Below, one piece after another: positions 6,101 through 29,594 of a stretch of 64,000 nt of DNA (the stretch's first letter is position 1; every line of letters starts with the position of its first letter). The stretch lies in the NCBI GenBank assembly GCA_973895155.1, contig OZ316893.1:8867839-8931838 (forward strand), written 5' to 3'. This DNA comes from Marsupella aquatica (Eukaryota; Plantae; Marchantiophyta). Made by a program: the position numbers and the translations under genes. The notes beneath the pieces were generated by a model. It had not been told where the DNA came from, made no database searches, and worked only from the letters and a program-made list of their open reading frames with translations.

Positions 6101-6353
6101 ATTCACAAATGTGTTCACCCTTCTTTTATCGTTATGACATTCAAAAGATTAATAAAAATGAATTGCAATAAAATCCAGAAACAATAATCCAGTGCATAAC
6201 AATCACGTGAATCCGTGATTCATAGGGTATTTGTGGGCAGTTGATTGAGTGAGTAAGGTTGTACTCATCTCACACACCATTCCAGGGAAGCCACAATGGA
6301 CTCGACTAGTCGTGTAGAATACAGGTAGTTGCTGGAAACGATTACTAGGGTTC

Positions 6354-7945
6354 TTGATGAAGGGGCTGAACCGGACCATGTGGCTCTCCAAGCACTCAGG
6401 AATGCATGAAACACTTGAGTATAAATCAACTGTTGGCAAACTCAATGGGAAGAAGAAACGAAGAGGGGGCAATGTTGAGGTGAAACAGGTTCGCTTTAAT
6501 GCAGTAGTGGCGATCTGGAAAGGAATATTACATCATTACACTCAACCTAAGCAATATGAGGAGAATGCGTTCGAGATGGATTTTACAAGGCACGGTCTAA
6601 AAGGATACAAGAAGTTTGTGAACGAGATGACTCATTATTTGCATGAAAGTGAGAGGATGAAGACACTTTCACACGGGAGCAGAAGGATGCATTTGTACTT
6701 GAGTGTGAGAAAGCAGGAGGATTCATTGACAACTTGGCTGTTGATTTGGAGATCAATATTTGGGATTTGATGGTGGCCAAATTAAACATGGATGATACTA
6801 CAATGCTTGAAAATCCTGGGATGTTTAAGCACAAGAGGAACTTGTTATCAACTTGGAGTAAAGAGTTGGCAATGGCAAAAGCTGAAAGCAACGTCAAATA
6901 TATAAACAAGGTGATGCAATTTGGGGATGTGAGTATCAGAAACGATGGAAAAGAAACACGTCCATCACGTGTACTTCCGGATGTGAGGAGTATCCATTTC
7001 TTGAAGCCTGAGCAGGTGCAAAATGCTCATTCCATCGGGACAAGTGTGCAAGGGGAGGTGTACACTTGTCACGTATTAGATTGCCCTCTTATTCTGAAGA
7101 ATGTCATACTAGTGGCAAAAAGATTCAAAAAAGGAGATAAGCATAAGAGGAGGACAGATACATTACAAGAAATGCTTATGGGAGGACTAAATCACAAGGG
7201 AATTGTTGGGGCTTTGGCAATGACGATTGATGATCCACCAAGACTTGTGTATGATCACTACAACGGAGGTGATTTGGGAAGCTTCATAGATAGATGTGGA
7301 TTGTGGTCAAAGAACAAAGGAAAATCACAAGGTTCCTCCAACATTGATTTCAAGTTTGTTTCTGAAAAGAAACTTTTTCTGGAGAACCGATTGGGAATTG
7401 CATTGGCGCTGCTTGAGACGTTACAATATTTGCATGATCACAACCGATTCCATTGTGATCTTCACTTTGGAAACGGTCATCTACATTTTGAGTATGAAGA
7501 TGATGTAGCCATCAAGGTGTATGTTGGCTTATGCAATTTTGGCTTGTCCAAACATAAGTCACAGTGCAGACTACCAGAGAATCGAATGTGGTCTACTCTT
7601 GCAGATAAAGTTGTAGCTTATAAAAAACAATATCCTCAATTAGCTCCAGAGCTTGTTTTGCCCACCCCAGTAGAGTATAGTGCTGCCACTGATATATATG
7701 CTTTGGGCAACATTTTTTAGAGTCTCTTTTTAGAGAATTGGGATGGAGTGTCCATGAGGACACGGTGGTTGGGTAGGGGTTGGAATACCTTGGAGCATGG
7801 TCATAAATTGGAAGCAATGGTCTGTGATATGATGTCCATCGAGGTGAAGAAAAGGCAAGAGTGTGCCTTTCGGAGTTTGAAGATGGTTCGGACATTCCCG
7901 GATTGTAGACTATTTGCCCAAAATAGTCCTTATCTTAGAGATTAG
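6354..7945 (+). pseudogene. Transposon-borne protein kinase with N-terminal extension (frameshift near 6650, in-frame TAG at 7718-7720)
   Basis: Kinase subdomains: SIGTSVQGEVY (Gly loop), VAKRFK, E in QEML, HCDLHFGN (catalytic loop), NFGLS (DFG position), APE, TDIYALG. ORF 7748-7945 is in the same frame and supplies subdomain XI (MMSIEVKKRQ). Confidence 0.8.
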
Positions 7946-8113
7946 AGATGAAACTTGACCCTCTAATTATTACATGAAGTCATTAAGTTACAAACAATCA
8001 GATGGTTATTATAAAGTGATATGTATCTTATTTGTTTATATTGTTATGCCATGCCATTTCATTATATTTGGATTTGTTGTAAATATGTTTTTATGTTTGT
8101 AGATCTTGCAATC

Positions 8114-10074
8114 ATGACGAAATAGAATTTGGATTCTGATGATGATGAAAAAGTTCCAAAAGACAAATATGCTCATTTATACATGCAAGACGCTCAAGAT
8201 GCTTATTACGATCATTTTGATCATGATATTCATGGAAACTCGCTATCTCCAACAAAAGGGTTGGAAGATGAGTCCGAACCCAATGCTTGTGACATTGGTA
8301 CGGCGACAAAAACACCTTGCCAAATTCAACTAAGTTGGAGGATGAAAGTGGCAATTTGGAGTGGAACATCTCAACAGAAAACGTGAAACCTCCTCATCAT
8401 GAATGGCCGATCAACGCCAAAGAATTGGAGATTTTGATGCCCAAAGCAGAGTTTGGCAAATTTGTGAAAAAGCTGTTTGACGATCCAGAAATGTGGACAA
8501 CAAAATCTTGGTTACAGGACAAATTTACCATGTCCAGGCTAACACATCGAGATGCTGCCACACATTGGCAACAAAGATTTTGGGAATATGCTCCAAATAA
8601 GGCAAACGGGAAAGTTAGTTCTGTTTATCCTCCTTTTGTTCGATGTTTGATTGCCGAGTTCATTCTAAAATGGAAGATGGATTACCGTTGGGAAAACAAC
8701 GATGGCAAGGTGACCCATTCCGTGCATAAATCAGTGCATGCTATTGCAGCAAACAGAGGAAAAAGTGCAAAGAAGGATGTTCCAACCATGACCTCTAACA
8801 AGGGGTCCAAAAGAAAAATGGATGAGGCGCAAAAGGTGAATACACAACCAAAGGAGAAAACAACATTTATCTCGCAATTCCTTGTGAAGCCAGCAACCAC
8901 ACCAAGCAATGTGGAGTCTACCAACAACAAAAGACCAAACATATCAGGGATTGGAAGCAGAACTCCACCTGTAATCAATATCAAACCTCCTAACAAGGAG
9001 AGGCTCAGCATGCAACATATATGCAAGAGCTTGGGAGCAGAGATTGGTGATTTGCTTGAGAAGAATCTTTGCACAAAGTATGTTGTCGAGCTTTGTGATT
9101 CTGGCAGCATGGAAAGATACAAGGCAAAACTACAAGAAGCCGATTTGAAGATACGATCACTAGAGAAGAGGCCCATGGAATCGGGGACCAATTCAGAGAT
9201 GATGTACTACAAGGCTCAATTATTTGACCAGATGGAGAAAATCCAGAAGTTGACTGAACAACTTGCCAACAAAGAAGGTCAAGCTAATCAAGTGCTAGAA
9301 CTTGAAAAGAAGAACAAAATCATCAAAGATCTTCAAAATCAGCTTGCATCTCAACAACTCATCATTACAAATTTGCACGAGGAGATAACCAATGTCAACA
9401 ATGGTGATTTGGGATGTGAGTCAAAAAAAGAAACATCATCTGATTTTGTTCAAATGCAGATCATTGATCCTACAGGACACAATACCCTATTTCCTGATGT
9501 GGAGGCTAGTGCAGAAGGCATTGAGAAATATTTTGACAAATGGAAGAAGGATGAAACTATGGCACCATTTGTTCGTGAAAAAGATGACAAGTGTACTTGG
9601 TGCCTCTATCCTTGGGGCCCAGAATCTGTTTCAATGTTGGGAACTTGCGGACATATATGGCATCATGCTTGTTTGTTCAAATGGTTGAAGAAGAGCAGAA
9701 AATGTTGGTGTCGCACACCATATTATGAACATGAATATCAATAACGAGGATTGTTGGACCAGATGCCATCAATGGAGACACAACAAGACACTGAAGAGAC
9801 ACAAGAGGGTGTAGTGATGACGCAAATAGATTCCACTCCCATTGAACACTTCACAATCAATGAGTATAATTTGTTAGATGGCGAATTTGATAGATTGCTC
9901 CTTAGTGGTCGATTCAATGAATGGAAAGAATATGCTGCAGCCAACCAGCCATCAATAGACGAGCAAAATATGCAACGATCTATTCATCGTCATCAACGAC
10001 GTCAACAACAGGCAGAAGTGAAAGCAGAAGTTCTTGACATCAACGGAAAAAAATATGAATACAATAGTCTCTAG
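8114..10074 (+). pseudogene. Transposon-borne coiled-coil + C-terminal RING-H2-like protein (putative E3 ligase), disrupted
   Basis: CTWC...CGHIWHHACLFKW...CWC RING-like pattern after a heptad-rich region. ATG at 8114 follows a splice acceptor at 8102. TAG at 8123, frameshift near 8315, in-frame TAA at 9742 followed by same-frame ORF 9751-10074. Confidence 0.7.
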
Positions 10075-10465
10075 ATTTTGATGGAGTTACTATTAGAGAC
10101 TTCTTTTTTCTTAGCACCTGGAAAATCATTTTGGACAATTATTTTCAAGTGTAACTGGTAAAGAAATATTGCAGTGGCATAATATATGACTTACCATGGA
10201 GTCACATTTTGGTCGAGCTCGTGTGTGGTGTTTGTGGATTTACATTACAGATTATTTAACCATTTTGTAGTATAAGTACCGTCAAAAATACCTCAAATCC
10301 CATGGGGAATAAAGTTTAGACTAGGCACAAGGTACATTATTTTGCAAATTGTGACACTTATAAAACTCAATAACTTATATTCATGGCCAAAAAATATATG
10401 ACATTCATTATTATTGTCAGTAAAGACAATACAATAGTAACAAAGCATGCTAAACATAACATTTC

Positions 10466-11516
10466 TCAAGGCTGTGAAAGAAAATTCCTAGTGTTTTTGT
10501 TGTGATTTCGTTGCAAAGCTTGATTCCACTCTTCCTCTGCAGCCCATGCAATTGGGTCGCGATTTTCCAGATGGACATTCCTCTGAGCTTGTTGAAATGA
10601 TGATGTTCCTTGAAATTCACGATCAATAGGATTGTTGGATGTATATGGATTAGTCATGGTCTGACCTCCATACTCATTGAAGATTGTAGTAGCTTCTTCC
10701 CATGGTGCACGTGTGTTGTTCAAAGATGTACTTTGAACATTATATGGTTGTTGAAAAGTAGCTGATCTGCTTCCCTCATAATGATGCCCTTATGTGCTAG
10801 TGTGTTGTTGAACAAAGTATGAGCTACTTGGGTCGACATCATTATGGACGTTTAATGATGGATAAGCCCAAGATGCGTTTGGTTGGAAAGGTGTTGCAAA
10901 ATCTGAATACAACGATGCATGATCTTCATCTTCAATCTGCGACTCGTCAATTGTAGGATACATCTCGAAATTCATTTCATTCTCCCAATCACCTGCATCA
11001 CTTACATCTGTACATATCTGGTGGAAGACGAGTTAAGAAGTCACCATCTTTATGTAATGATAATCCTTCCAAGGCTTCATCCGCATCATCAATTGCATCA
11101 AAATCTTCGATATCTTGTTGACCAAGGGCGGTATACGTTGCGTCACACCCTTCATTCTGAGTCTGCTCAGTGGATAATGGCCTGACACCGTCATTTGTTG
11201 CTCTTCTTTCATCATAACGTTGATATATAAACGTATGGGGATTTCTTACTTTTGTAAGCCCTTTCTCCACTCTCATGTTTGTGAATACAAACACTAAATC
11301 CTTTGCTCGATCATTTGTCAATCTGTTGCGACTTGCAGAATGAATAAATACATAAGAACTCCAGTTTCTTTCACACGCAGATGCGCACATTTTTTGGTGA
11401 CAGATTTTTCTAGCCAAAACTCTTAAATCTAGATAATCAGCACCGTATGAATGCCACCACTCTCTTGGACTTACTTGACCTATATTAGATTGGGCTCCTC
11501 TCATGGTTACTGTTGT
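10466..11516 (-). pseudogene. hAT transposase, C-terminal part (dimerisation domain plus acidic tail)
   Basis: PREWWHSYG...LARKI...SACERNWS...IHS..RNRL....KDLVFV is the hAT C-terminal dimerisation motif. The tail continues through a frameshift near 11000 and an in-frame TAA at 10790. Confidence 0.9.
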
Positions 11517-11556
11517 GTTTGGTACTCGGGGGTCTCACTATATGGAGGACCCCCCC

Positions 11557-11569
11557 ATCACCTGCGACG
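11557..11569 (+). promoter_or_regulatory. Putative internal transposase-binding motif ATCAC(C/G)TGCGACG (inverted partner at 21198-21210)
   Basis: 12/13 identical inverted motif starting at nt 33 and nt 31 from the two element ends. Its ATCACG core is also in the MITE at 895-1177. Confidence 0.6.
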
Positions 11570-11986
11570 TTTTCATGCCTAGACCCCCATACTTATTAAG
11601 TTGAAATTTTTTTTTCCTCCCTCTTTCTTTCTTCTAAGAGTCTAAAATCCAAATTGTATTGCCCCTATAATTTGTGAAGTAAAGTGTCACATATCAATAT
11701 AAAATGCCTAGAAAGAAAAGATAAGTCTATGTCAGTACCTTGTGAAGTCGTATGTCAGACATGGCACGCCCTGCAACAGTTCTTGCACCTTTGTCGACCT
11801 TAAACTTTGATCATTTCAATGCATCATTTATATTGTGTACCTAAAAGGTCATCCCAATATAAACCTTACGTGCATAAGTGGGATGGCCTTTAAGGTCACA
11901 ACATAAATAATCCATTCCACCCATTGATCACCAATCCCATGCTCCATCCATACTCCATTTAAAACTTATGTTGAGAGATGTAACAT

Positions 11987-12069
11987 GTGACGGAGGGGAA
12001 TTGAACCCCTAATTGAGAAAGGATCTCAAGTTGCCAATCCGTCACCCCCTATCCTATCCCACTACACCC
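11987..12069 (-). ncRNA. tRNA-like Pol III cassette inside the P-like element
   Basis: A-box-like GGGTGTAGTGG. B box GGTTCAATTCC (11997-12007) sits in a T-arm-like hairpin agggg/cccct. Closing stem gtgacgga/tccgtcac and an extra hairpin ttgaga/tctcaa. TTTT at 11961-11964. Confidence 0.45.
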
Positions 12070-12078
12070 ACTAATATT

Positions 12079-12158
12079 AACAAAATAAAACATATATACA
12101 GACTCTCAAAAACTAAACAACAAAATAAAACATATATACAGACTCTCAAAAACTAAAC
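12079..12158. repeat. Perfect 40-bp tandem duplication just 3' of the transposase stop
   Basis: aacaaaataaaacatatatacagactctcaaaaactaaac x2. Confidence 0.9.
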
Positions 12159-12171
12159 AGTAACATGATAT

Positions 12172-15100
12172 TCATACCATTGTTTGAAGATACTGATCCA
12201 AAGCACGTCTATCTATTGGATCCAACACATAGATACGATCCATAACCCCTTCTTTCATGGTTAAACTAACACTAGCAATGACCATTTCAATATCCATCCA
12301 TTTCAAATCAGTGGTATCATATCTGAATTCACTTTTGCTCTTACCAATAGGACTATACCAATTTAACAACAGTTCACAAATGTTACCTGATTGCCCTGCA
12401 AGTGGAGTTGGCCTATCCATCAAATCAATTGGTGACCGACAATTGCCCCACCTACTGCCATACTTCTGTCTCATTTGGACAATCCGACCCAACCAAAAAT
12501 ATTTCTTACCTGCTGAGATTGCCTCCACCACAACCTTATTCTTTCCTCCCTTTCTTTTTCCAGATCTAGTACTTGGAGCAGGACTATCATCAGACTCAAA
12601 TGCAATTGCACAATCAGTGCCAACATCAACAAAACATGAGTTAGGATTGACTTCTTGCACTTTTCTCTTGCCAGTACTATAGTATAGCACTTGTTTCACC
12701 CTTGTCAGCCTATCTTTTGACAAATGCGGATTTCCTACCAACTGGCTTACCAGAGTGGATTTGTAAATCACCTTGCCTTCATAAGTAACAGTAGGCACTA
12801 CCTTGGTACGATTCTGTACATTAGTTACAGCATGGACAACTGATCCAAACACATGCCGAACTTCATGACCTAATGTCTCAAGCTCATCTGAGGGGTCTAC
12901 ATCAAACTGTATATCATCTCTGTGTACATCATCTGAATGCATCTCAGGAACAACAATGGGATCTGGTTCTGTTAACCATGCATCTATTCTATTCAGATCA
13001 TCCTCAGGATCTTCCAATTCATGAAAATCTCCAGTTGGGCGAGGACCTATGTCTGGTGGTTGGTGCTCTACTTGCTCCTCAGAATCATTGCAAACAATTG
13101 CTTCCTTCAGAACCACCTCTAGTGGCCAGGTCTCACTTTCCACAACCCAAGGACATGTCCACCATCTCTTTCTAGCTGCTGGTAAGGAACTTCGTGGAGA
13201 CATCTGCAATTGATGCATAAGATCCTTAGCAGCAACAAAACCTTCTTTAAGGGCTGCAACCACTAATTCATTAGTCTCAATGAGAGAATAGTCAAGTAGA
13301 TTTGGTGCTTCCTCCCCTTCCCCTATAGGATGAATCTTCCCCCATACATGATCTTGTTTCTTATGTGAACGACCTATCTTCAAGCCTTCTGGTCCATATT
13401 CTAGGGCAGCAAGCCGGTTCAGTCCAACAGCACTATCCAATAGAGAGCCAAAATCATAATTCCGCTCATGGCCACTCATGCCTCCTACCTTGCTGAAGAA
13501 AATCTCACAACAATCTGAACCTAGCAAGTGGAAGGGAACACCTAGATGTGGGAACTTATCTCGAAAGGCACAAATTAATAGCACAATGAAATGACATGAC
13601 ATGTTAACATCATGAAAAGCCTGAATAGACATCATGTCTTTCTCAGTGTGTGCTGCAAAGTTCCCACCCACTGAATGGTCACCAAACCTCAACCACAATC
13701 TCCACAAACGTAGAAAGAATGAAACCTTGGATGCTAACACAATACGGGACCTCAAATCATGAACTGGAGAAAAGAAAATATCTAAGTAATCTGCACAAAT
13801 CTCCAAGTACAACTGAGTTCCTAAACTTCGTTCATGTTGTACATCTCTCCTCTCATACATATCTTTCAGACATTGCTGCACTCTTCTTGCTGCTATTCGT
13901 TGTGGACCTGCCCAATTCTGCCGGTCAGTCCTATTCACATCATCCCAAGCCATGCCATGTTCATGAATTGGATAATGATTGTAGACATTAGCTACATAAG
14001 ATAAAGATGCATGTTGATCTCCTAGCACCAGTAAAGAAGACACTCTGTCTAAGGGGTTTATCATCTTTTTCCCATTATGAGGTTGGTCTTGGTCACCAAA
14101 GCCATACAAATCTCCATTTGGTAGAATTGAAACAGAGTATGTCCACCCTTCCCACCCAACTCCGTACCTTGGGTATGATCCATTCTGCCCTCTGTAATCT
14201 TCCAGCATCAGCTTTCGGCGACGTGCATCACCATCACTAGCATGTCCAAGCAAAGGGCCTACCATAGCTCTACAATATTCATCCCAAAAAGCCTTTAACT
14301 GGACCCAATGCTCTCGTACCCAAGAAGCTGTGAACTTATTACAAGTTGGAAGTGCACACACAGCCAATTTAGGTAAGGACTCATGCAGAGGATTCACAAT
14401 CACAACTCGGGCATACATGCACTTGGGGCATTGTTCAAATGTACTTACAATTTTATCATACCCCTCATCACCTTCACCAACTAGAATTTCCAAACCATAG
14501 GAGCATACATGCTGCTCTGAAGGTCCACAGAAACCAATGAGAGTATCATACTTTGCCTCCCACCTGAAACACAGACATGCAATTTTTCAATATCACAGCA
14601 ATTCCAGCCAAGTGCTACTTGTAAAGTCATTAAAAAAACAATTGGAAAAATGTCCAGTTCCAATTACCTAGGGCGTTCTTTGATCCTTGTTTCATCCTCA
14701 GCAAAGATAACAGGCACATCCCCCTCAATGCCCAATGAGTGCTTTGCAGCAGACAACACTCTAGCAATCTCCTGAAAGGTTTCCTTCCGTAACCCGGTTT
14801 GAAAAGGTGTGAGTTTTGCTCTATCACGTTTTAGGGTCACAAGGCTAGGGGCTGTCAAGTTTCGTGCAAAACAATGAGCAACTTGACGGCCCCCAAATTG
14901 GAACATAGCCTGAGCAATAGCTCGAGTCCTATTACTGTAACGATTACCTTTTGGCTTCCTGCCTAAATTGCGAGCTACATCCTTCAAGAAATCCCACAAA
15001 CCCTCCTTACCACCAAATGCACCATTCCTGTGTCCATTCAAAATACTCCTAAGAAACAATCTCAAATCCTTCCTGTCTGCTGCAACTCCTAACAACTCCT

Positions 15101-16748
15101 CTAGTTTTCGTTTCCTGGTGCTCAAGGCACATACTTTCTGAGCCTGCAAAGCTAACAACCAACGCTCTTTTCGTCGCACAGAGTTCAGGTTGTGCACTTG
15201 ATCTCTTAACTCTGTGTTGGTCAAATAATCCAAACGTATACCACCAGCAGTGGTTCGGCTCCCTCTGTGGACTACTGCTTCCGCTTCCCTGTGCACCCGT
15301 CCACGAAAATCATCTTCTAGTGTTATAGAATCACATTCACTACAAGTTAGATTTTCAAATCCTCCTCCATTCTGTGATAACCTCAAGCAATCCTTGTGTC
15401 TAAAACAGCCTGCTATACTCACAACACTCTCTCTACTTGGATGGAAAACATCCAAGCAACAACTTGGCTCACAATGCCATGTAATTCCCCCAGACTGATC
15501 ATCTAAAATGCCAGAAATATCATAAGATATACCCTTCCATAACAGTCGAGGCACACCTCTCTCTACCCATAATCCCCAGCAAAGCAAACTCAGACCAAGA
15601 TCAACAGATTCACACACACCTGAACCTGAACCTGAACTGCTGCCTGTCCGGGACCCATCATCTTTAAAGAACTTCAAAATCCCGCTCTGACCAGGATGTA
15701 GGTCCCTAGAATCAGTCCTCTTTGGCCTGCCCCTCTTCCCAGACCTCAAGGCAAGCATTTTTGTGTCATGCCTAGTCTCCAATGCATCCAAGTGATCTCG
15801 ACTCACTAAGTGTGTCCTCAAATTGGGCTCCAAGGTAAGCTTCTTGGGGCACAAGTCAGTGTGAAGCATTCCACAGACAGTACATCGAACCTTAAACAGG
15901 AAAGACCTGTTTACATACTCAGGAGTACTGGGATCAGGAACAATAGAGAATAGTTTGCCATCATCCCCAAGCTCAGCATTCAATCGTTGAACTATCTCAA
16001 CACCTACTTTGATGGCGTCTGCATGATCATATTCTGGCTTCTCAGAGATGTCTGCTACCTGAACCAAAGTAGAAGGAATGCCCCTTCTCCGACAATAGTT
16101 ATCCTTGTGCTTATTGAAGACCAAGTGTTTGGTCTTAAAATTACTAAAGCAATTGGAGATGGATTTAGGGTTCTGAGAGTTGTCTGCATTGCCATAAGTT
16201 TCCCTACATTCAAGACACTCCAGATGCCCTCGAACATCTGTCCCCTCATCCCAGGTACGAATTCTCCAATTGTGATCACCATAACCCTTCTTATGTACCC
16301 ATTTCTCTAACCTCATCCACTCATCTTTCCATAGCTTTGATGGGACATCTCCCATCAATTGTGACTCAAAAGAAGCCCTTACAGGGGAGGGTGCTAGTGC
16401 CGTTGGCCCCAGTTGTGGTGTCCCAGTATTTGGACCCAATGATGCAGGAGTGCAAGGATGACAGGGTACTGGTGGGATCCTCCCACCATCTCCAAGTTCT
16501 TGTTGTACAACAATAACTCTTCCATCCAGCTCAGACAGATCAATTAATTTCTCATGTACAAGTTTCACTCGACCAGGAAGTCTCTCATCCCAAAAATCAA
16601 AGTCAAAGTCTAGAGTAGAGGCAATACGAGCCCTAAAATCATGTAGGGTGTGTCCTTCTTTGAATGACAAAACACAAATTGGTAAATCAGCCTTGTCATC
16701 CCCAACTTTGCGTATTAATTTAACAGAGTTGGGTTTAGGGGCTGCCAT
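12172..16748 (-). CDS. P-element/THAP9-like DDE transposase, 1,490 aa; exons 16748-14668 and 14563-12172, 104-bp GT-AG intron
   Basis: Splicing ag|GTAATT...TTTCAG|g joins the 694-aa and 773-aa ORFs in frame (DETRIKERPR-WEAKYDTLIGFCG). Motifs in P-family order: RYS...APSLVTLKR helical region, FAEDET, ASDGD, DQPHNGKKMIN (DxxHxxK), DRQN, GSDCCEIFFS (catalytic E). N-terminal CxxC...H...H zinc fingers and a KRGRPKR AT-hook. Confidence 0.85.
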
Positions 16749-17243
16749 TGCAATACAAATCTAGAACATGCATAGCACCATTGCTTTTGGAGTTGATAAC
16801 AGAAAGACCTGCACAAATACATTTGAAATACACACAAGGGAAACACATTAGGATCTTCAAGAGATGCAATGACAACATACACATTCTCATGTAATGTACA
16901 TAATGTCAGCATACATTTAACAATAGAAGTGCTAATAGGCCAAAACACTTTATAATGCAATCCATCATACATGCAAATGTATTCAGTGAAAATCATGATA
17001 TACCGCTAAAGTTGGATAAAATATCTTTGGACAAAATATCCTTTTCGCCTGCTTTTCTAACAATTCCCGAAGTTTAGTGCTTCTGCTCATCAAAATGCAG
17101 CACTATTAGTGACCTTAATTATGACAAAATGTCAACACTAATAAAATTGGGTACTACCACCCATGATGCACCTTAAGTATGTGCCTTGCTCATACCCCAC
17201 TAAGACGTTGAAACCTAAGTAATAGGTTTGTTCATTATTCAGA

Positions 17244-17918
17244 TCATTGGAGCCATGAAATGTGGTCCCTGATTGGAGTCTTGAGGTGTGGATCAATAGG
17301 ATGACGGGGGCAATAAAACATCTGTCGCTGTTGTCCATGTGCTTCATGGTCCCAGATGTCCCTATCATGAGCGAACCCTTTGCTTTTGATCATCTGGAGA
17401 CAATCTGTATGCCAGGCATTTGGACATCGTAGACATTGTACCATGTTCTTGACCATCTGACCCTCAAGACTCTGATAACATGTCACACATGTATGCAGTG
17501 GGCAGGACTTTGCATCAGCTACCAAACACCCAAAGCAATAAAATCGTACACAAAAACGATCAGAGCATTTTCGCACAATTGTAGGTGACGGTCCCACAGT
17601 GCGGCACCCATAACACATGGCCTGGTCCTGGTTACAATTTGGGCAAAACCATGGCTTCCCTCCATGATGGAGGGGAAGGACTACACAGGGGCAAGAGTCA
17701 TTAGGGGCTTCATCTCCAACCACATAATGAAATTGCCTGTGACATGGCCCATCACAAATTACCAACTTCCCACCATGCTCACAAATTGCACAAACATGAG
17801 GGCTAGTTTGTAGAATCTCTTGCTCAGAGAACAACGGAATACGCAATACCTCTTCCAAAGAGGCTCCTCTGTCAGAGGACTGTGTTGCTTTCTTTATGTT
17901 TGAAGTCCTTGTCGGCAT
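17244..17918 (-). CDS. Stand-alone EDM2/NSD-type tandem PHD-finger protein, 224 aa (transposon cargo)
   Basis: CAICEHGGKLVICDGPCHRQFH...WFCPNC...CYGC...CSDRFCVRFY..C...CPLHTCVTC...CLRCPNAWHTDCL...YCPRHPIDPHLKTPIRDHI follows the cysteine spacing and C-terminal signature I recall for the plant EDM2 PHD module. Intact ATG-to-stop frame; splice acceptor 7 nt upstream of the ATG. Confidence 0.8.
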   Translation of the reverse strand: MPTRTSNIKKATQSSDRGASLEEVLRIPLFSEQEILQTSPHVCAICEHGGKLVICDGPCHRQFHYVVGDEAPNDSCPCVVLPLHHGGKPWFCPNCNQDQAMCYGCRTVGPSPTIVRKCSDRFCVRFYCFGCLVADAKSCPLHTCVTCYQSLEGQMVKNMVQCLRCPNAWHTDCLQMIKSKGFAHDRDIWDHEAHGQQRQMFYCPRHPIDPHLKTPIRDHISWLQ

Positions 17919-18234
17919 GGTTCAACTGCAATCATCACAAAGCACATCACATATGAGGGGGACATGATGATAGTGAGCAATCCATAGACAAAGATAAGGT
18001 TAATCATAGCACCTGCTCCAATGATCTGCAAACCTCCCTCCCAGATGAAGTCAACTACACAGTGCAACCTGAACACCCACCAACCAAGACATACATAAAT
18101 ACAATGCCAGCTTGCAAAACTTTGCCACATAATGGGAATGAAAAATATTCTCATATATCATGGATGGTACAATTGCAGCCTTGCAAACAAAGGCCTAGTC
18201 ATATATGAACAACGCATCCATGTACTATCAAGGA

Positions 18235-18633
18235 CTACAATGTCAAGCATCCATGGGTTGTAACCTTAGCTTGATCTGATATACTATCTGGGGCTACAAT
18301 ATCAAGCTCAGTTGAATGTGGAATACTATCAGGGACTACAATGTCAAGCGTGTCCGGGATGACAATCTTGCGTAAAAGACACTCATTTTGAGGCCAAATG
18401 GTTGGCCTTATACAAGAGCACTTCCAACGACGTGTGACAACTTTGCCATGCTTTCCCATGTATGTCCTAGTAACAAGCCTTCCACGCATTTTCAAGCAGA
18501 AGCAATGGAACCATTCAAAATTCCCATCACCAACCCTGCACTTGACACAAGGTTCACACCAGCAGCATTCATCTGGATGCTGCAGAAGGAGCTTCTCATA
18601 ATTCGCTTCTAATATAATGCCCAATATAGCCAT
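18235..18633 (-). CDS. Small Cys-rich protein with a divergent ING-type PHD-like motif (transposon cargo)
   Basis: CCWC..CVKC......EWFHCFCL...WKCSC resembles ING PHD EWFHxxC...WxC. ATG start. IV(I/V/A)PD repeats at the C-terminus. Confidence 0.5.
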   Translation of the reverse strand: MAILGIILEANYEKLLLQHPDECCWCEPCVKCRVGDGNFEWFHCFCLKMRGRLVTRTYMGKHGKVVTRRWKCSCIRPTIWPQNECLLRKIVIPDTLDIVVPDSIPHSTELDIVAPDSISDQAKVTTHGCLTL

Positions 18634-19288
18634 GGCACTATTTTTTTATACTCGGTGAATGGCCAGACGATTAGACGTGCAATGACAGGCAACTTACAAT
18701 TCACTAGGTACACTATGTGTTCTAGCAAACTGCTTCACCGCAAGTGTTGGTGCTCACTGCTGCAAGCGCTGATGACAACCTCTACAATTCCTTTTGCAAC
18801 CTGTGAACAAAATTGAAACCACCATTCAATTTCTAAGTTTCAAAAACTTCCCATTACATGAAGACAACCAATTGGCCATGCATGTTACTACAGCAATAAA
18901 ATAATAACCCAATCGCTCAACAGACCTGAATAGCTAACCTGAATAGGATCAAGTTCAGAATCCAGAATGGTAATGCCCTTGCCCAGAAGCTTGAGAAACA
19001 AAAGAGAATTTAAAATCAAGCACGAGCGTCATCCACGTCTTGACCAGGCCCGCCACCCAGTATGGCTGGAGGCTGTGGTCCCCCCTGGCTGAGTAAACAC
19101 TTAAAGAAGTCTTCTCTTCTAGATGACTTAAAGAAAATTGCAGGAACCAGCCAACGGGACACCAAGGCATGTAATAGAGAACCAGATTTGTGCGGGTGTG
19201 TGGGGGACGACAGAAGTCAAGTTACATGATTTTTTTCCTGGGGTCCAGCCCATGGATGGAGATCATGTAAGGTGGTCAATCATGGCAA

Positions 19289-19693
19289 GTGCAATCATTG
19301 GAGACCTGTACTCGCGGTTACTCTAACGATGCATCCAAAAAACATGTGCGTCAAGTCGTCGATGCGGACACAGAAGGAGAGATGAGTATGGACAACGTCG
19401 AGACAAATGACGACAATACTGAGCTAGTATTCGGCTGGGAAGTTGGAGCTGGATCTCAGCAGTGGCTCCAAACCTTATCTGCGAGGGCATGGCGAGCTCT
19501 GGAGGACAAAATACTCAAAGAGCTTATCGCCATTCACGGAGCTCAGAACAGGAATTTTATAGCTGAAAAGCTAAACGGGCAGATCAGGTGCTTCCTCGTC
19601 TATGACCGCTACCAAATCGACTCTAGGTGTGCCATGCGTGATAGATTTGGGCGTCAAATAGTAGCAAGCAAGCAAGTACGATCGTCAAAGTAG
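19289..19693 (+). CDS. Hypothetical 134-aa ORF inside the P-like element
   Basis: Open frame with protein-like composition, non-ATG start, no recognised motif. Confidence 0.2.
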   Translation: MQSLETCTRGYSNDASKKHVRQVVDADTEGEMSMDNVETNDDNTELVFGWEVGAGSQQWLQTLSARAWRALEDKILKELIAIHGAQNRNFIAEKLNGQIRCFLVYDRYQIDSRCAMRDRFGRQIVASKQVRSSK

Positions 19694-19869
19694 GCAGCGC
19701 CTACCTCCCGATTGAGCAACGCAGCAATGCAGCTCCAATCCTGGCACTCCGGTTTGAGATATCGCAACACTCCCTGCAGTAGCCACCTCCCGTTTCAGCA
19801 AGCTAGCAGCTCCCGTTTTAGAAAGCAGCAATGCAACACTCTCGACACCCACCTCCCGGAGCGCAACAC

Positions 19870-20700
19870 TCTTGCTCGATCCTTCACTCCCGGGTTCACT
19901 TCAAGCAGCAGCGCAGCTACAAAGTCTCGCTCTCCCCTTCACTCCCGGGTTCACTTCAAGCAGCAGCGCAGCTGCAAAGTGTCGCTCTCCCCTTCACTCT
20001 AATCAGCACACGCAACTGAGAAGTCTCGCTCTCTCCTTCACTCTAATCAGCGCACGCAACTGAGAAGTCTCGCTCTCCCCTTCACTCTAAGCAGCAGCGC
20101 AGCTGAGATGTCTCGCTCTCCCCTTCACTCTAAACAGCAGCGCAGCCAGGAACTCTTGGTCGATCCTTCACTTCAAGCAGCAACGGCAACAGCACAGCCG
20201 AGAGCGCAACACTCTCGCTCTCCCCTTCACTCCAAGTAGCAGCGCTTCACTCGATCCTTCGCTCGATCCTTCGCCGAGAACTCTCGCTCTCCCCTTCACT
20301 CTCGCTCTCCCCTTCACTCCTTCGCTCGATCCTTCGCCGAGAACTCTTGCTTGATCTTTCACTCCAGCCGCAGCAGCAACGCAGCTCGATCCTTCTCCGA
20401 GAAATCTTGCTTGATCCTTCACTCCAGCCGCAGCAGCAATGCAGCTCGATCCTTCACTCCAGCCGCAGCTCGATCCTTCACTCCAGCCGCAGCTCGATCC
20501 TTCACTCCAGCCGCAGCAGCAACGCAGCTCGATCCTTCACTCCAGCCGCAGCAGCAGTGCAGTCGAGAGCACAACAGGAGTCGATCCTTCACTCCAGCAA
20601 CAGTGTAGTCGAGAGCACACTCTCGCTCGATCCGACCTTCACTCCAAGTGCAGTCGAGAGCACACTCTCGCTCGATCCGACCTTCACTCCAAGCAGGAGC
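19870..20700. repeat. Subterminal tandem repeat array of the P-like element (ctcgatccttcactccagccgcagcagc-type units)
   Basis: More than 20 copies of ccttcact cores with variable gcagcagc spacers. Explains the overlapping repetitive ORFs here. Confidence 0.9.
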
Positions 20701-21240
20701 ACAACTGGTTTAGACCCCGTTTAGGCCATTTGCTGCAAGGTACAAACAAAAGAGACTCTGTTGAGGCAAAGAGCGGGTGGGGCCAAAGGGATAGTGGAGG
20801 GAAACGACACGGGAGGGACTGACAAGGGCCAATTGAGGTAAACGAGACACGTTAAACAGAAAAATTTCAAACTTAATCCCGGTCAAACCCTAAACGTGAG
20901 TCCCCATAAAACCAGATCATTCTCAAATTCTTGCCATGTTAACATATTAGAAAAATTAGGAAAATATATTGGGAATGTTATGTGTGCCACGTGTACCAAT
21001 GACATAGTGACACGTGTACTTTACATAGTCCGACACAAAGACCCCCTAACTTCTTTGTATGCCTTCCATCTACAAAGTCAAAAATATTAATATCCCTATT
21101 ATTCTTACAAGTTGTCCAACATATAAAGTTGGCCCTATTGTTCTTACACAAATCTTCTTAAGTCTTCCGAGAAACCCAATTAACGGACCCTATACTTCGT
21201 CGCACGTGATATGAGATTTTCGCGGAGTGAGACCCCCGAG

Positions 21241-23112
21241 GTTTGGTATCTTTTTTTGCGCATCAATTGCTTGCAATTGTATGGCAGAAATGAGTGCATT
21301 AACCTCACGATCATGGTTGACCCCTTCCTTCACCTTGTGTTCGGCATATCGGGCAATGTACTCATTGAAACCTCGACATAGTTCTCCATCTCCAGCAACA
21401 TCTAGGTCTTCATCAAAAAACATTTGAGGATTGATATATGCTGCAGCTAGCATAAAATTGGTGGTAAGAGATTCTCTTCAATCCATGTATACTTTTAATA
21501 TCCTTGGCTTCAAGAACTCTGTTACCAATGGACATTCCTCCATGCTTGCCTTCAAATCAGTAATCCCTCTTTTCAAACTCCAATACAACCAGGCTGATTG
21601 GGGTGAAGCACCATCAAATTCGTGAAGCATCTTCACCAACGGAAGAAAGAAGTTCACTGTAGCTTTCACATCGGCCCAAAATTTATCTTGTTGTATCCAC
21701 CCTTTCAGTTCTTCTGCCTTGGCCCTTGTCATGTGACCATTTGATTTTGCACGCACAGGAAGTCTATCACGATAAGACTCCCATTTATCATCAATGACCA
21801 TTTGTTGCAAAGCTCCTCTTAGCTCCAATGCTCTTTGCACCATGAGAAAATTTGTTGCAAATCTTGTTGCATTTGGATTTGGTAGTTTTTTGTAAGTCGA
21901 TTTTCTCACAAATATTGCGGAGAGCTTTTGGGACGATGAAACTGCTTTTACTATCCAACTCAAGCGTTTAAAAATGCTTTTGAATGGATTCTGTCTACTC
22001 TCATCTAGCACTACATTCTTATGACCACACATATCTTCTAGTAACAAATTGAACACGTGGGCAGCACACAAACTCCAAGTGACATGTGGATATTTTTTCA
22101 TGACTATCTCACAACCTGCTACACGATTTGCAGGCGCACCATCAGTTACAATTTGAACGATGTGATCTGGACCAATGTCATCGATATATTTCAGCCACAT
22201 CTCTCCAAGATATTTTCCATCTTTCCTATCAGCTTGTGTCGCATTCCAACTATCCAAGAAAAAATCACCTTTAGAAGTCAACAACATGACGTTCATCAAA
22301 GGTTCACTACGAATGTTTTCCCATCCATCTGATGAAACATAATAACCAAAAAGTTTTGTTTCCTTCATGATTTTGGTGATGTCTTTTGTGAGATCTTCCT
22401 TGGCTTCCTCCAACAACTTCATTCGCAAATTCCGCATAATGAGAAGAGAATACCCATTTACAATACCTTTTGAAGTCTCATGTATTGCTTCTCGAAAGTA
22501 AGGATTCTGTGAAACATTGAATGCAATACCACTTGTGTAGAAAGCTTTTGCCCAAAGCTTGTCCAAATACGCTCTATGTGGAACTTGATAAGCATCCATA
22601 ATCGGGTTTGAAAGACTTCCTGCCCAAGCCATATGAGTCATATTTGACTCATTTTCCATTTGAAAATGGTTAGACTCTCGTGTGGATGCTTGTGAATGGG
22701 AAGTTCCAATCTTTGGCCTGCGACCCCTGACATCCCGCAAGATATGGGTTCCATCCCTTCGTTTGTAGTTGATGTTTGATGGAACTTTGATGACATTGTA
22801 CATTCTGTTGATTTCATCCAACTTCACATGACCATACAGGCCTAGGCATGGTGGTGCATTCCCTTTGATGATGTTTCCCATCAAATGTGCTTTGGCTCGT
22901 GTTGCATGAAAAGTAATATATGTTTTACAAAACTTGCATTTTCGATACATACGGTTTGCATCATTAGATGTTGAAGGCGCATCACATTGTTCGAAATATT
23001 TCCACACCGTAGAAAATTTTGCACCATGCTCTCGCGAATGATTTGCTCCATGCCTAGGGATAGTGGAACGATATCCAGATTCACCGGACTCATTATCATC
23101 AGAAGAAATCAT
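21241..23112 (-). pseudogene. hAT transposase, N-terminal part (BED zinc finger + DUF659/RNase H-like core), in-frame TGA at 21478-21480
   Basis: VWKYF...KCKFC...RAKAHL (BED); SSDGW; IVQIVTDGA; CAAHVFNLLLEDM; TRFAT; AAAYINP. Interrupted at 21241 by the nested element. Confidence 0.92.
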
Positions 23113-23452
23113 TGTAAAGAAAGATGTACATGCAGAATTCAAATTCTATAGTGTACCGTCAATAAAATGACAGTGTCATCTCCTCTCCAACGCACACTGA
23201 ACATACATAAATACAACAATACAAAATAAATATTTATTGTATACTAAACTTCATATAGCAGATACAATGAACCCCAAGAATAATCACATTTCACAACATT
23301 TTGAGTTCCCTAAATTTTATCATAGTATTTTTGTTGTTTTTATGTTTGGTTGTAACAAGTATAAAAGAGTAGGACACTTTGATGAATTACCACAATCTGA
23401 GTCGAGACTCCAAGATTACGCACCATTGTTTCCCGATCTCTCATACTTGCTT

Positions 23453-23741
23453 ACATCCCTACTTCGTCCTAAGTTATAGAATATCTATAACTTAACAATC
23501 ACTTCTTTATAAAGCAGAAATATTTTCAGGGAAATCGTGACACACATGTGAAATGTCACAGACTGAGCCAAAGCTCCAAGCCTACGCACATGGGTTTCTC
23601 TATCCTTTGAATTTTTTTTGCTTACTAAATAAATGACGTTAAGTTGTTAAGTTAATATATAGAACTCTTGTATGAAATATCCCGAGCCGAGCCAAGGCTC
23701 CAGACCCGCGCATACAAAAATTCATATATATTACTCCATTA
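23453..23741 (-). repeat. Right subterminal arm of the hAT element (inverted copy of 5751-6036)
   Basis: Reverse complement aligns colinearly with 5751-6036 (roughly 70% by eye), including two ggagc-N4-ctc motif copies. Confidence 0.8.
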
Positions 23742-25333: not shown

Positions 25334-28300
25334 TGTAGGGTCAATCTATTTGATCTCTTATTTGTTGTAACCATTTACTCTAAACCATGGTTAACCCCTA
25401 ACCCTATCCTGAAGGGGTAACATGGGTTAACACCAACCCCAACATGTAACCCTATGGTGACTATATAAGTCACACCCATAATGGAACACAACAGCGAGTT
25501 GCAAGTCTCTCCATTGTCACACAACACGTTATCAGCGCGATAGCATCTAAATTTTTTTTTTCAGTTTGGAGTTAAGGTAGGATAATTGGAGTACGGATTT
25601 CAGACAAAGAAATTGACTTCCAATGTTGCGTTTTTAGCCCCACCCCACATCAGTAACTGCCACCGATTCAAATCACACCATAATTTAAACTTCGGATCCT
25701 CTGAATAGTCCACGAATCCTTACGGAAAACACACAATCCGTATATAATTGATTAGTGACACTATCGGAGAGGCATGAATCACTTTGAAATAGTGTTTTCC
25801 CGTTCAAATTCGACTCAATTTTTTTTATATCTTATTGTTCCGCCACGGAAATCCTGAGTTTCTTTTATCGCCAAGGAAAATCCCGTGGATAAAAAGGCAC
25901 GAGTGATTGAAGTAATTGAGAACGACATAGATTTGATATTAATCAGAACGCGGACAGTGATGTGTTACAGATTTGAGATACTATGGCCACCCTGGAGAAA
26001 TTACACTTTCCAGCCCTATTGGCAGATGGCAATAATTACTTAACCTGGTCAATAGATGTAGAGACCTACTTCGCATCAATACAACTAGAGGATACATTAA
26101 TTACTGATGACAATTTAACATTGCAACAGAAAGCCAAAGCTGTATTTCTACTTAGACAGCATTTGACACCATCACTGAAGACACAATATATGAGTGATCT
26201 TAATCCCCGTCTATTATGGGACAAATTAAAAGCTCGATTTGACCATATGCGAGAGGTCTGGCTCCCAGAAGCCCGCAGGGATTGGTTTAATCTACGTGTC
26301 ATGGATCATACTTCTATAGCAAATTATAATAGTTCTCTATTTCGTATTACATCTCAATTGGAGATGTGTGGCCACCCAGTTGCAGACTTAGACAAAATCG
26401 ATAAAACGTTGAGTACTTTCCCAGAGGCCAACATCGCCTTGGGAACTCAATACAGGAATATGCAATTCACAACTTATTCTAACTTAATTGCACATCTCCT
26501 AGTAGAGGAGAAACAACAAATTGTCTCTCTACAGAATGCAAGGAAACGACCACCAGGCACTGCACCAATACCACAGAAACCAGAAATTAATTACAATGCC
26601 CCAGAAGACCAACAACGAAATATAAGAGGCCGGGGTACACAAAGAGGTGGATATAGAGGACGAGGTCGCAACTCAAATTATAGTGGAAGGGGAAATCAGT
26701 ATGAAAATACCAGAGGTCGAGGCAGCAGAAGCCGTGGCCAGGGTAGAGGAAGAGGACGCGGCAGAGGTCACGCCCAATCATCTGACAACACACGAGAAGA
26801 CCGAATGTGTTATAGATGTGGAAAAATTGGCCACCTAAAGAAAGACTGCTGGGCTTCTGACCAAGCGGCTAAGAGGCACTCAGAAGCAAGAGCTAAGTTA
26901 AAGCAAAATCCAGATGGCAACTATATGGAATTGGAAGAGGAGCTACCATCTTATCGAGAAGAAACTGATATGATAGACCAATCCAACGCTGAAGCTCATC
27001 TGGTGACAGCAGAGCCACCATATCCCTCCTCCAACGATCCCAATTTAGGTATCATTGATAGTGGGACATCCCACACTATCCTAAAAGATAGGAGTTATTT
27101 CCAAGACATCACTCCATCTGCCAGGGTAATGACAACCATATCAGGTACGAATAAGATTGAGGAAGGAACAGGAAAGGCTACTGTCAAATTTCCCCAAGGA
27201 ACAGTCATTAACATCGAAGCAGCTATCTTTGCACCAAAAGCTACTCGAAATTTGATTAGCTTCAAAGACGTTGTTGCTAATAATTATCAACTCCGCACAG
27301 CAATGCTCCAGCAGAAACCTACTTTGCAAATAGTAGCCATGACCACAGATGGAATTCAAATCAAAGAGATACTACCTCTAATACCCCCGGGTTTATATGC
27401 AGCCCCAATAACAGCGAACTATGCCACAGCAGAATCAAATAATCTTACATACCTCTGGCACTGTCGACTGGGGCACCCGGGAATAAATATGTACCGTCGC
27501 ATCATCAATGACTCACGAGGAATCCCTAAAGGAGTGCGTCCATCTATAAATCATAAGCAATGTCTGGCATGTTCTCAGGGGAAGCTGAGTACACGCCCAG
27601 CTACACAAAAGACCATCTATACTATCCCTAAATTCCTGGAACGTCTAAATGCTGATGTCTGCGGGCCAATACACCCTCCAAGTGGGCCTTTCAGATATTT
27701 TTTAGCCATTGTAGACTCTTCAACTAAATGGCTCCAAGTTTCATTAATTTCTACTCGTAACCTGGTCTTTGCCAGAATCTTAGCCAACTTATTAAAACTT
27801 CGAGTACAATTCCCAGATTGTCCAATTAAGAAATTGCGAGTGGACGGGGCAGGGGAATTTACCTCCAGAGCATTTGACGACTTCTGTATGACAGCGGGGA
27901 TCGACATTGAATACTCAGTTCCTTACGTCCATTTCCAGAACGGCATAGCAGAGTCAGTCATAAAAAGGATTCAAATGATAACAAGGCCACTTCTATTGAA
28001 CTCTAAACTACCACCTTCAGCATGGGGACACGCTGTCCTCCATGCAACAACTTTGCTTAAGTATCGGCCGTCAGCATTTAATACTAAAACCCCTCATCAC
28101 CTTGCATTCGGTTTACCCCCTGATCTTTCACACATTAGAGTATTCGGATGTAAAGTGATGGTACCCATCCTTGGGCCACATCGATCCAAACTTGGCCCAC
28201 AGAGAAGAGAAGGTATTTATATTGGCCATGACTCCTCGTCTATTATCCGCTATCTGGAATCTAGCACAGCTGATGTATTTAAAGCAAGACACGCTGACTG

Positions 28301-28403
28301 CCATTTCTATGAGGAAATTTTCCCCTCATTACTTAAGGCGCCAACTACATCACACGACATAACACCAGTACAGCTCAATTGGAATTCCTCACCTTTCTCT
28401 CAT
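25334..28403 (+). mobile_element. 3'-truncated Ty1/copia LTR retrotransposon, Bianca-like lineage
   Basis: LTR end ...CAACA (25526) is followed by PBS CGTTATCAGCGCG, resembling the Bianca-type half-tRNA PBS. TATA ctatataag at 25461. LTR start at 25334 is a guess because no 3' LTR, RT or RNase H is present. Confidence 0.8.
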
Positions 28404-28499
28404 AACGTTTCAACCTGTGTCTCTAGGAAGGGCATCAAGCTAGGAATGAGGAAAACAAATGGCCGGTATACACGTACTGTGAGCAGCGCACATCTATAA
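25983..28499 (+). CDS. Copia Gag-protease-integrase polyprotein, truncated before RT (last ~30 codons are read-through into unrelated DNA)
   Basis: GNNYLTWSID Gag start; CYRCGKIGHLKKDC zinc knuckle; IIDSGTSH protease; LWHCRLGHP and CLAC; integrase DVCGP / RVDGAGEF / QNGIAE. Confidence 0.93.
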   Translation: MATLEKLHFPALLADGNNYLTWSIDVETYFASIQLEDTLITDDNLTLQQKAKAVFLLRQHLTPSLKTQYMSDLNPRLLWDKLKARFDHMREVWLPEARRDWFNLRVMDHTSIANYNSSLFRITSQLEMCGHPVADLDKIDKTLSTFPEANIALGTQYRNMQFTTYSNLIAHLLVEEKQQIVSLQNARKRPPGTAPIPQKPEINYNAPEDQQRNIRGRGTQRGGYRGRGRNSNYSGRGNQYENTRGRGSRSRGQGRGRGRGRGHAQSSDNTREDRMCYRCGKIGHLKKDCWASDQAAKRHSEARAKLKQNPDGNYMELEEELPSYREETDMIDQSNAEAHLVTAEPPYPSSNDPNLGIIDSGTSHTILKDRSYFQDITPSARVMTTISGTNKIEEGTGKATVKFPQGTVINIEAAIFAPKATRNLISFKDVVANNYQLRTAMLQQKPTLQIVAMTTDGIQIKEILPLIPPGLYAAPITANYATAESNNLTYLWHCRLGHPGINMYRRIINDSRGIPKGVRPSINHKQCLACSQGKLSTRPATQKTIYTIPKFLERLNADVCGPIHPPSGPFRYFLAIVDSSTKWLQVSLISTRNLVFARILANLLKLRVQFPDCPIKKLRVDGAGEFTSRAFDDFCMTAGIDIEYSVPYVHFQNGIAESVIKRIQMITRPLLLNSKLPPSAWGHAVLHATTLLKYRPSAFNTKTPHHLAFGLPPDLSHIRVFGCKVMVPILGPHRSKLGPQRREGIYIGHDSSSIIRYLESSTADVFKARHADCHFYEEIFPSLLKAPTTSHDITPVQLNWNSSPFSHNVSTCVSRKGIKLGMRKTNGRYTRTVSSAHL

Positions 28500-29594
28500 A
28501 ATCCGCCGGAACGCTTGCAAGGGAATTCATTTGATCCAGAGTGAGCGACCAGGAGGAGGACGTCGAGAAACATTGCGATCAAGTCAGGTAGCCATTCCGT
28601 TCCCGTGGAGCGAGGTCGAGAATTTCTCACGGAGGAAAGAGAATGAATGGACAAGTAGCCGTCGATCCCAACGTCTCTACTGTGCTCATCATGCTGGTAC
28701 AATATCGATTCTGACTGAGCTTTGCCGATGCGTGTGAGTTTTTATGATTATATGCTGGTAGGCCCCGAATACTGCAGTTACTTGCCTTAATTTCCAGTCT
28801 GGACATCCCAGTATGCAGAGGATTTGGTGGTAATGTCATTGAGTGGGGCCTACTTCTGATTGAGCAATCGAGTACGTACCCGCAGCGTACAAGCTGATGT
28901 GGTCTGAGCTTGTGTCGTCAGCCTGGTCCATAGCTTGGATTCGTTAGTCTCCGGGCTTCTATCCCAGCTGTGCTTTAAGAACGGACTCGAGCTAGTTTTC
29001 CATGGTTGGCCTTCGATCATTCTTGCTCCATATTTATATCGTGTGTAGGCCTTCCAGAGGGTCGGGTGAAAAATTCGACTGGATCTCTGTGTCTCCACCG
29101 CCAAATTCTGAACGTGAAGCTTAAATTTATACACGTACCCTACAAATCTGAGGCTTTACCTTGAATGTGCTATAATTTCTAGGGACACGTAGTCAGTTGC
29201 TTGTCAGAGCCGTCGATGAAGACGGAAATCTGAGCTGAAGTTTGATCGTAGGACCAGTTCTTGGAAGTTAGAGGAATTGATATAGTCGGCTTGCTGTATA
29301 TATGTTTGAGTAAGCACATATTGTTCCACGGCACCTTAGTCAATAACCAGTAGTTCTCCACATAATTGCTAGTCCAGCCATACTTAATTTATGCAGAACT
29401 ACTGTTTGGCCTCATGACTTAGACTCGGCGTTATAAGAGCACAGCCAATTCTAAGGTGACCTAGGGTCGGATTTGTCAGTCTTACAATTTGAGCATTGCA
29501 TATTGCAGAAATACTTGAGCTTTTCGTTCAGTTGTACTGAGGTTACGAGAACGAGGAAAGAGTCCGTGGATCAATCAATTGGCTGAGTTTCGAG

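Follow-up and report, generated by a model that had tools for sequence, protein, structure and literature searches.

A stand-alone EDM2-type PHD cassette encoded within a P-superfamily-type transposon of Marsupella aquatica

In Arabidopsis, EDM2 binds histone tails containing H3K9me2 and works through AIPP1 and ASI1 to favour full-length transcription of genes that contain heterochromatin, as described in the available text of two studies (PMC7472560, PMC7529245). Transposons are known to encode only a few counter-silencing proteins, of which the most thoroughly studied (VANC) bind DNA. According to the accessible part of PMC5735166, VANC works by sequence-specific binding of short DNA motifs, and its targets have non-coding tandem repeats. 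The capture of PHD and chromo readers by transposable elements (TEs) was suggested to aid evasion in the available portion of bioRxiv 2021.11.30.470311. P-family target site duplications (TSDs) measure 7-9 bp, and the hosts of the P superfamily listed in the available text of PMC3698922 do not include land plants.

Here, a DNA transposon was found to carry a separate gene for an EDM2-type PHD cassette, the PHD ORF, in a stretch of 64,000 nucleotides of contig OZ316893.1 of M. aquatica, the whole of which is called the window below. The PHD ORF shares with EDM2 of the ASI1-AIPP1-EDM2 (AAE) complex a homologous cassette of 2.5 PHD fingers and a C-terminal tail. EDM2, however, is 1,297 aa long as against 224 aa, and it has an RFD (by Pfam, in the EDM2-cluster representative P0051), methyltransferase-like and proline-rich parts (available text of PMC7529245) and an acidic patch ahead of the PHD fingers, all of which the PHD ORF lacks; the latter is transposon-encoded and falls in a separate, long-branched clade. 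The PHD ORF is like VANC and KIU of the VANDAL elements (MULE) in being an accessory gene of its own on a plant DNA transposon. The element described here also has non-coding tandem repeats, and KIU, as far as the available sources describe it, includes a captured host domain. VANC binds DNA and has a MULE as its carrier, whereas the PHD ORF encodes a zinc cassette of the histone-reader type on a P carrier, with no shared domain seen; by analogy, it may work like VANC in countering silencing. The Rehavkus PHD transposase, the chromodomain integrases and the cnidarian PYGO-type PHD fusions, in the accessible descriptions, are also mobile elements owning a chromatin-reader fold, but in these the reader is fused, whereas the EDM2-type gene is separate here and a fused cassette was found in 0 of 104 transposase homologues. 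The carrier resembles the P superfamily (Drosophila P, 1360, Galileo, THAP9) in fold, in the DDE and D(2)H residues, in its 8-bp TSD, short terminal inverted repeats (TIRs) and intron, and differs from it in having no THAP match in exon 1, a transposase of 1,490 aa and a length of 9.7 kb with cargo. In the literature library searched, covered by its listings and the openings of abstracts, neither an EDM2-type gene encoded by a TE nor a P element of a land plant was found described.

The carrier element and its transposase

The element and its surroundings are laid out in Table 1. The first-pass annotation had proposed an insertion inside another transposon, and this was confirmed by the frame of the interrupted hAT transposase, which became continuous across the site once the element and one TSD copy had been removed in silico. 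The host hAT is seemingly large, apparently extending over about 5900-23600 with imperfect inverted repeats at 5914-6114 and 23533-23597, and it would then also contain two ORFs on the opposite strand, one kinase-like (6653-7720) and one with a RING finger (8293-9744).

Table 1. Coordinates of the carrier element, its contents and the flanking hAT sequences in the window
Feature	Position	Strand	Remarks
Whole P-superfamily-type DNA transposon	11525..21240	-	9,716 bp; TIRs, TSD, empty-site frame, depth step
TIR at transposase 3' end	11525..11539		15 bp, perfect
TIR at 5' end	21226..21240		15 bp, perfect
TSD, left copy	11517..11524	+	8 bp
TSD, right copy	21241..21248	+	8 bp
Transposase exon 1	14668..16748	-	693 codons; two C2H2-like Cys/His patterns (regex); putative first catalytic Asp D685
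Predicted intron	14564..14667	-	104 nt, GT..AG; removal leaves 1,490-aa stop-free frame
Transposase exon 2	12172..14563	-	P-element-like catalytic core and C-terminal beta-barrel
Stand-alone EDM2-type PHD-cassette ORF (P0001)	17244..17918	-	224 aa, Met to stop, intact
Second small ORF	18235..18633	-	132 aa; PHD-like Cys/His pattern by eye; co-oriented, unclassified
Degenerate MYB-repeat fragment	19469..19588	+	Antisense to transposase; Pfam Myb E 9.5e-4, below cut-off
Non-coding tandem-repeat array	19787..20693		Periods 12-87; near 5' end
Interrupted host hAT transposase, 5' part	21249..23145	-	DUF659 (21481-23145); premature stop ~21478
Interrupted host hAT transposase, 3' part	10998..11516	-	Dimer_Tnp_hAT (11001-11534)

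Neither of the two long ORFs underlying the transposase exons (12172-14586 and 14664-16760) had a Pfam match, and PDB sequences searched with a transposase profile yielded no match either; the identity of the transposase, which the first-pass annotation had not classified, was settled by the fold search. The AlphaFold model of exon 2, made from 78 sequences (pLDDT 83.6), had in Foldseek only two matches at E<=1e-3, both to P transposase (E 7.8e-5). By VIA it matched the Drosophila P transposase 6P5A at Z 20.1 (rmsd 3.0, 312 aligned), the next match reaching Z 6.8. The catalytic residues D804, D853-x2-H856 and E1047 of the spliced protein correspond to D118, D167, H170 and E361 of exon 2, which were at least 90% conserved in the 78 sequences, and the first Asp motif (D685), located outside the folded part, was found in 63 of the 104 transposase homologues. 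No THAP domain was matched by Pfam in exon 1 up to E 10; the C2H2-like patterns are found there instead. The transposase is thus, on its modelled fold, of the P-superfamily type: it is a P-type DDE transposase with the D(2)H motif, and the TSD of the element lies within the 7-9 bp of the superfamily, next to TIRs.

Among 7,998 candidates scored with the exon-2 protein, the 104 homologues had closest members at 58-65%, and those with a name came from Riccia (many), Adiantum (one) and a coral; on this evidence the host would probably be a land plant without seeds. The carrier shows that land plants have intact P-superfamily-type elements, and the homologues from Riccia and Adiantum are unannotated. 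The C-terminal beta-barrel (~12175-12820 on the minus strand, exon-2 residues 650-793) had weak BAH-, Tudor- and chromo-like matches with Z up to 6.8. Two of the transposase homologues (P0274 and P0279) carry PTM_DIR17_Tudor and a third (P0287) an Ulp1 protease.

Translation, Pfam and TIR mapping bore out the earlier description of the PHD ORF as intact, inside the TIRs, and upstream of and co-oriented with the transposase; it ends ~0.5 kb upstream of the transposase ATG. Splice-acceptor-like sequence precedes both start codons on the minus strand (16748-16770 for the transposase and 17918-17935 for the PHD ORF), hinting at possible alternative splicing from a common upstream exon. The PHD ORF is unlikely to be a part of a transposase fusion, since its own stop is common to relatives and none of the transposase homologues has the cassette.

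Its position next to the transposase bears on one possible role, that of an integration-targeting partner. The PHD protein would then bind the transposase, tether it to a chromatin mark and steer insertions into silent, TE-rich regions, as a two-component version of the chromodomain integrases. The nesting in the hAT and the co-orientation with the adjoining transposase gene agree with such a role. In the available portion of bioRxiv 2021.11.30.470311, PHD and chromo domains are described as often fused to TE proteins and tethering as a known route to insertion bias, and Rehavkus transposases, in the sources accessible, carry a PHD finger. Only one insertion site was seen, however, and a tether may already be built into the transposase, given its beta-barrel and the Tudor domain of two homologues. 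We consider this role unlikely. Of the earlier proposal of steering into heterochromatin, the nested insertion stood, and the heterochromatin part draws on that single event.

The EDM2-type cassette and its relatives

The PHD ORF was matched above the Pfam cut-off by PHDvar_NSD (E 5.8e-8) and below it by PHD-1st_NSD (2e-5) and by PHD_NSD and PHD (both 1.4e-3). Its Cys/His cassette occupies residues 43-219 and retains 25 of 26 conserved Cys/His columns. The resemblance to EDM2, tail included, had been pointed out in the first-pass annotation and was upheld by BLASTP, in which residues 42-222 aligned with residues 224-432 of EDM2_ARATH (P0158) at 31% identity (E 1e-27), the alignment taking in the C-terminal YCxxH..TP..DH tail. 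By regular expression, this tail was found in 19 of 21 land-plant EDM2-like proteins, in 8 of 17 proteins of the small family described below, several of which are truncated, and in none of the eight 'algal-type' or six NSD-like proteins, the last two labels being our own. Among homologues of solved structure, the PHD cassette of NSD2/NSD3 comes closest (E 8e-9 to 5e-7), and the alignment with NSD2 ends before the EDM2-type tail. No SET domain was matched by Pfam in the PHD ORF, which therefore does not have the architecture of the NSD/ASHH SET methyltransferases. Nor does it have the full EDM2 architecture with RFD, acidic regions and methyltransferase-like ELP domain, as its Pfam matches are all of PHD type and it ends at its own stop. 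It has the 2.5 atypical PHD fingers, the Cys/His spacing and the C-terminal tail of EDM2, and is, judged by its sequence, a true EDM2-type PHD cassette. An AlphaFold model from seven sequences was poor (pLDDT 44.6) and was set aside.

Six homologues of the PHD ORF (213-304 aa, 44-82% identity) start and stop near the same points, and its own start and stop are common to relatives at 44-50% identity. A profile search gave 518 matches at E<=1e-3, and among the best 150 of the 518 that were listed the small stand-alone proteins ranked first and the EDM2-like proteins next; this search superseded an earlier one for longer homologues, a weak test in which none were found. For the tree, 59 sequences were picked by hand (57 of 157 extracted cassettes and two NSD-like). 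In IQ-TREE, 17 stand-alone proteins of ~220 aa formed a clade (100/100) with a stem of 0.96 substitutions/site, placed as sister to the sampled land-plant EDM2-like proteins including the liverwort paralogues (82/83). Grouping this small clade with the liverwort paralogues instead was not rejected (p-AU 0.31), and its stem is long. A FastTree run was midpoint-rooted, the intended outgroups being absent from it.

The CpG o/e of the PHD ORF was 0.33; that of the transposase ranged over 0.23-0.32 and that of three host genes over 0.60-0.90. The GC3 of the PHD ORF, 0.42, was like that of the transposase and unlike that of the host genes. The separate long-stemmed clade and the transposase-like CpG o/e and GC3 indicate an EDM2-related lineage that is old and has resided for long in methylated DNA, rather than a fresh capture. 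Of the earlier proposal that the element had captured the bare EDM2 reader module, the stand-alone EDM2-type cassette therefore stands, whereas a recent capture does not.

A metagenome scan with 139 pattern matches came down to four loci, two of them family members on short contigs and two NSD-like SET proteins, and no relatives were found in scans of viral contigs and prokaryote genomes. Both distant homologues for which DNA was available have decayed, L001 through an in-frame stop and L002 through a frameshift, and no transposase was found on their contigs of 1.5-1.9 kb, which are too short to show one; an association with a TE is thus seen for the present P-type element family alone. These relatives raise the question of whether the small family might belong to the host genes of non-seed plants, one element having picked it up and amplified it, with the selection reflecting host function. 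The TE context of the relatives at 44-50% identity was not seen, and Marchantia has a stand-alone PHD protein of 280 aa (P0042), though in a clade other than the small family. Such an origin is very improbable: an annotated genome supplied a name for 0 of 13 small-clade members looked up, the two relatives represented by DNA are both broken, and the composition of the PHD ORF is TE-like. A motif similar to the H3 tail is seen in P0042 at residues about 20-30.

Acidic residues ahead of a PHD finger, of the kind found in EDM2, help H3K4 recognition in other PHDs. Within six positions before the first PHD Cys, each of the 14 EDM2 proteins and 6 liverwort paralogues scored had them and none of 16 small-family proteins did, so the histone specificity of EDM2 cannot be assumed for the PHD ORF, and its reading of the H3 tail may be altered or lost. 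The earlier expectation that EDM2-like histone specificity had been carried over was accordingly not sustained.

Most small-family members open with [AS]R-x-K-x-x-A-x-K, in the register of the H3 tail (R2, K4, A7, K9). Compared with the H3-tail motif, 10 of 15 leaders matched at least 4 of 9 H3 residues, a test that was post hoc, the motif having been spotted by eye first, and made on related sequences. None of 5,000 shuffles reached the observed sum of leader scores, whereas 16 of 22,680 permutations did; of the EDM2-like pre-PHD segments used as controls, 3 of 98 matched H3 equally well. Five of 20 rows had been dropped: P0009, P0017 and P0293 are leaderless, P0188 duplicates P0011, and P0003 was missed by the regular expression (5 of 9 H3 residues by eye). 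An H3-like start was seen in P0003-P0008, P0011, P0012, P0014, P0030 and P0033. The protein of the window (P0001) and its closest relative P0002 scored 2 of 9, and the motif is lost in P0001. The leader could also be a plain basic nuclear-localisation signal.

All 16 small-family proteins scored have lost the acidic patch and fully conserve the zinc ligands, which would also suit a non-histone interaction module, in which the cassette regulates the transposase or binds a host factor via surfaces other than the H3 pocket. The NSD2/NSD3 cassette as the closest solved homologue and a conserved, family-specific segment before PHD1 point the same way; against it, the H3-like leader of most relatives and the EDM2-specific tail point to chromatin. 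A module of this sort seems distinctly unlikely.

Constraint on the PHD ORF and its occurrence in other copies

The first-pass annotation had named neutral evolution and occurrence in one copy alone as signs of a passive capture, and neither was found. The 35 variant sites listed for the PHD ORF combine haplotypes as well as samples and lack independence; 19 were synonymous and 16 non-synonymous. With one site from a spurious 60-bp match left out (19/15), pN/pS was 0.25-0.33 over kappa values of 2-8, with p between 7e-5 and 1e-3. The first-finger region (17661-17795) had six synonymous and no non-synonymous sites, and no stop or change of a Cys/His ligand was present among the variants listed. 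One diverged sub-haplotype, with 7 synonymous and 9 non-synonymous sites, had a pN/pS of 0.42-0.54 that was not significant (p 0.08-0.17). For the transposase, 12 of the 19 listed variants were synonymous and 7 non-synonymous.

The stretch was present in seven runs, none recorded as RNA, which stem from five studies and represent four coded organisms, and public contigs of related samples covered the PHD ORF. In X1, which is possibly the source of the window itself, contigs of 312-1,130 bp with 0-2 differences had a depth of 454-526 and diverged contigs one of 18-21. The summed depth in X1 jumped from 210 to 960 at the left end (TIR) of the element, and reached 759 and 569 in the PHD bins, comparable with 454-858 in the transposase bins. 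With the tool's caveat that contig depth is not copy number, this suggests some 20-25 very similar copies of the element that keep the PHD ORF. No loose ends at the TIR were present among the rows listed, so no other insertion site was directly seen. The PHD ORF was fully covered (30/30 bins) in X3 and X5, one X3 contig (depth 26) having a deletion of 17358-17625. In X6, 6 of 30 bins were uncovered and in X7 only 7 of 30 were covered, holes that carry no proof. A depth peak over the PHD ORF in X6 was considered as a related high-copy family and rejected as a spurious match of 45-60 bp.

Because pN/pS was below 1, neither stops nor ligand changes occurred and the ORF was covered elsewhere at transposase-like depth, the PHD ORF is not a one-off passive capture; it is likely functional and selected at the protein level. 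A weaker form of passivity would be an old captured fragment, carried as Pack-type cargo, in which the synonymous excess came from mutation bias or past selection. The element does carry the degenerate MYB fragment, a probable passive host capture, L001 and L002 are decayed, and one sub-haplotype is without significant constraint. Yet the synonymous excess persists at kappa 8 (p 1e-3), the start and stop are those of the relatives at 44-50% identity, all ligands were kept over the stem of 0.96 substitutions/site, and the TE-like composition speaks for long residence without decay, which makes passive cargo quite improbable. The non-autonomous carrier, recent host fragment and neutral decay of a Pack-type element were not found here, in view of the open predicted-spliced transposase frame, the TE-like composition and the pN/pS obtained. 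Ordinary explanations are largely excluded for this P-type element family. A possible splice donor was noticed just after the MYB repeat.

Possible role of the PHD protein and further contents of the window

The reading that we tentatively favour is that the PHD ORF, which an intact P-superfamily-type transposon carries as an accessory gene under purifying selection, could well act as a chromatin decoy or anti-silencing factor that would keep the element transcribed. The protein would be made from the element and would enter chromatin via its basic N-terminus and the PHD cassette. Having neither the RFD nor the methyltransferase-like parts of EDM2, the cassette would compete there for histone-tail marks, or else for the partners of host EDM2/NSD-type complexes, and the net effect would be to favour expression of the element against host silencing. 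The H3-tail-like N-terminus of most relatives fits a decoy role, and P0001, in which the motif is lost, would work through the PHD cassette alone. Against a decoy stand the missing acidic patch, the low leader scores of P0001 and P0002 and the weak constraint on one sub-haplotype. The cassette would be without the sequence specificity of VANC, and any benefit would extend to other TEs.

In a wider form, which we regard as possible if doubtful, a land-plant P-type lineage would encode a small counter-silencing protein, consisting of an EDM2-type cassette and, mostly, an H3-tail mimic, that would either sequester the host proteins which write and read H3K4/K9 or take over the AAE pathway, by which polymerase gets through heterochromatin. 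If true, this would be a histone-mimic anti-silencing system in transposons, distinct from the DNA-binding VANC. A selected stand-alone module of the EDM2 reader, carried by an element that seems to have been amplified recently, is a small and directly testable candidate for a second strategy, at the level of histones and their readers, and the PHD ORF is a natural minimal EDM2 variant with which the binding of the cassette may be dissected.

The second small ORF had no match in Pfam or the Atlas, and its three listed variants were all synonymous. The complex repeat array near the 5' end is reminiscent of VANDAL repeat arrays. Elsewhere in the window, a Copia gag-integrase ORF (25977-28499), two tandem LRR receptor kinases (29541-32981 and 41816-44782) and an exostosin GT47 gene (56945-58486) were observed, all on the plus strand.
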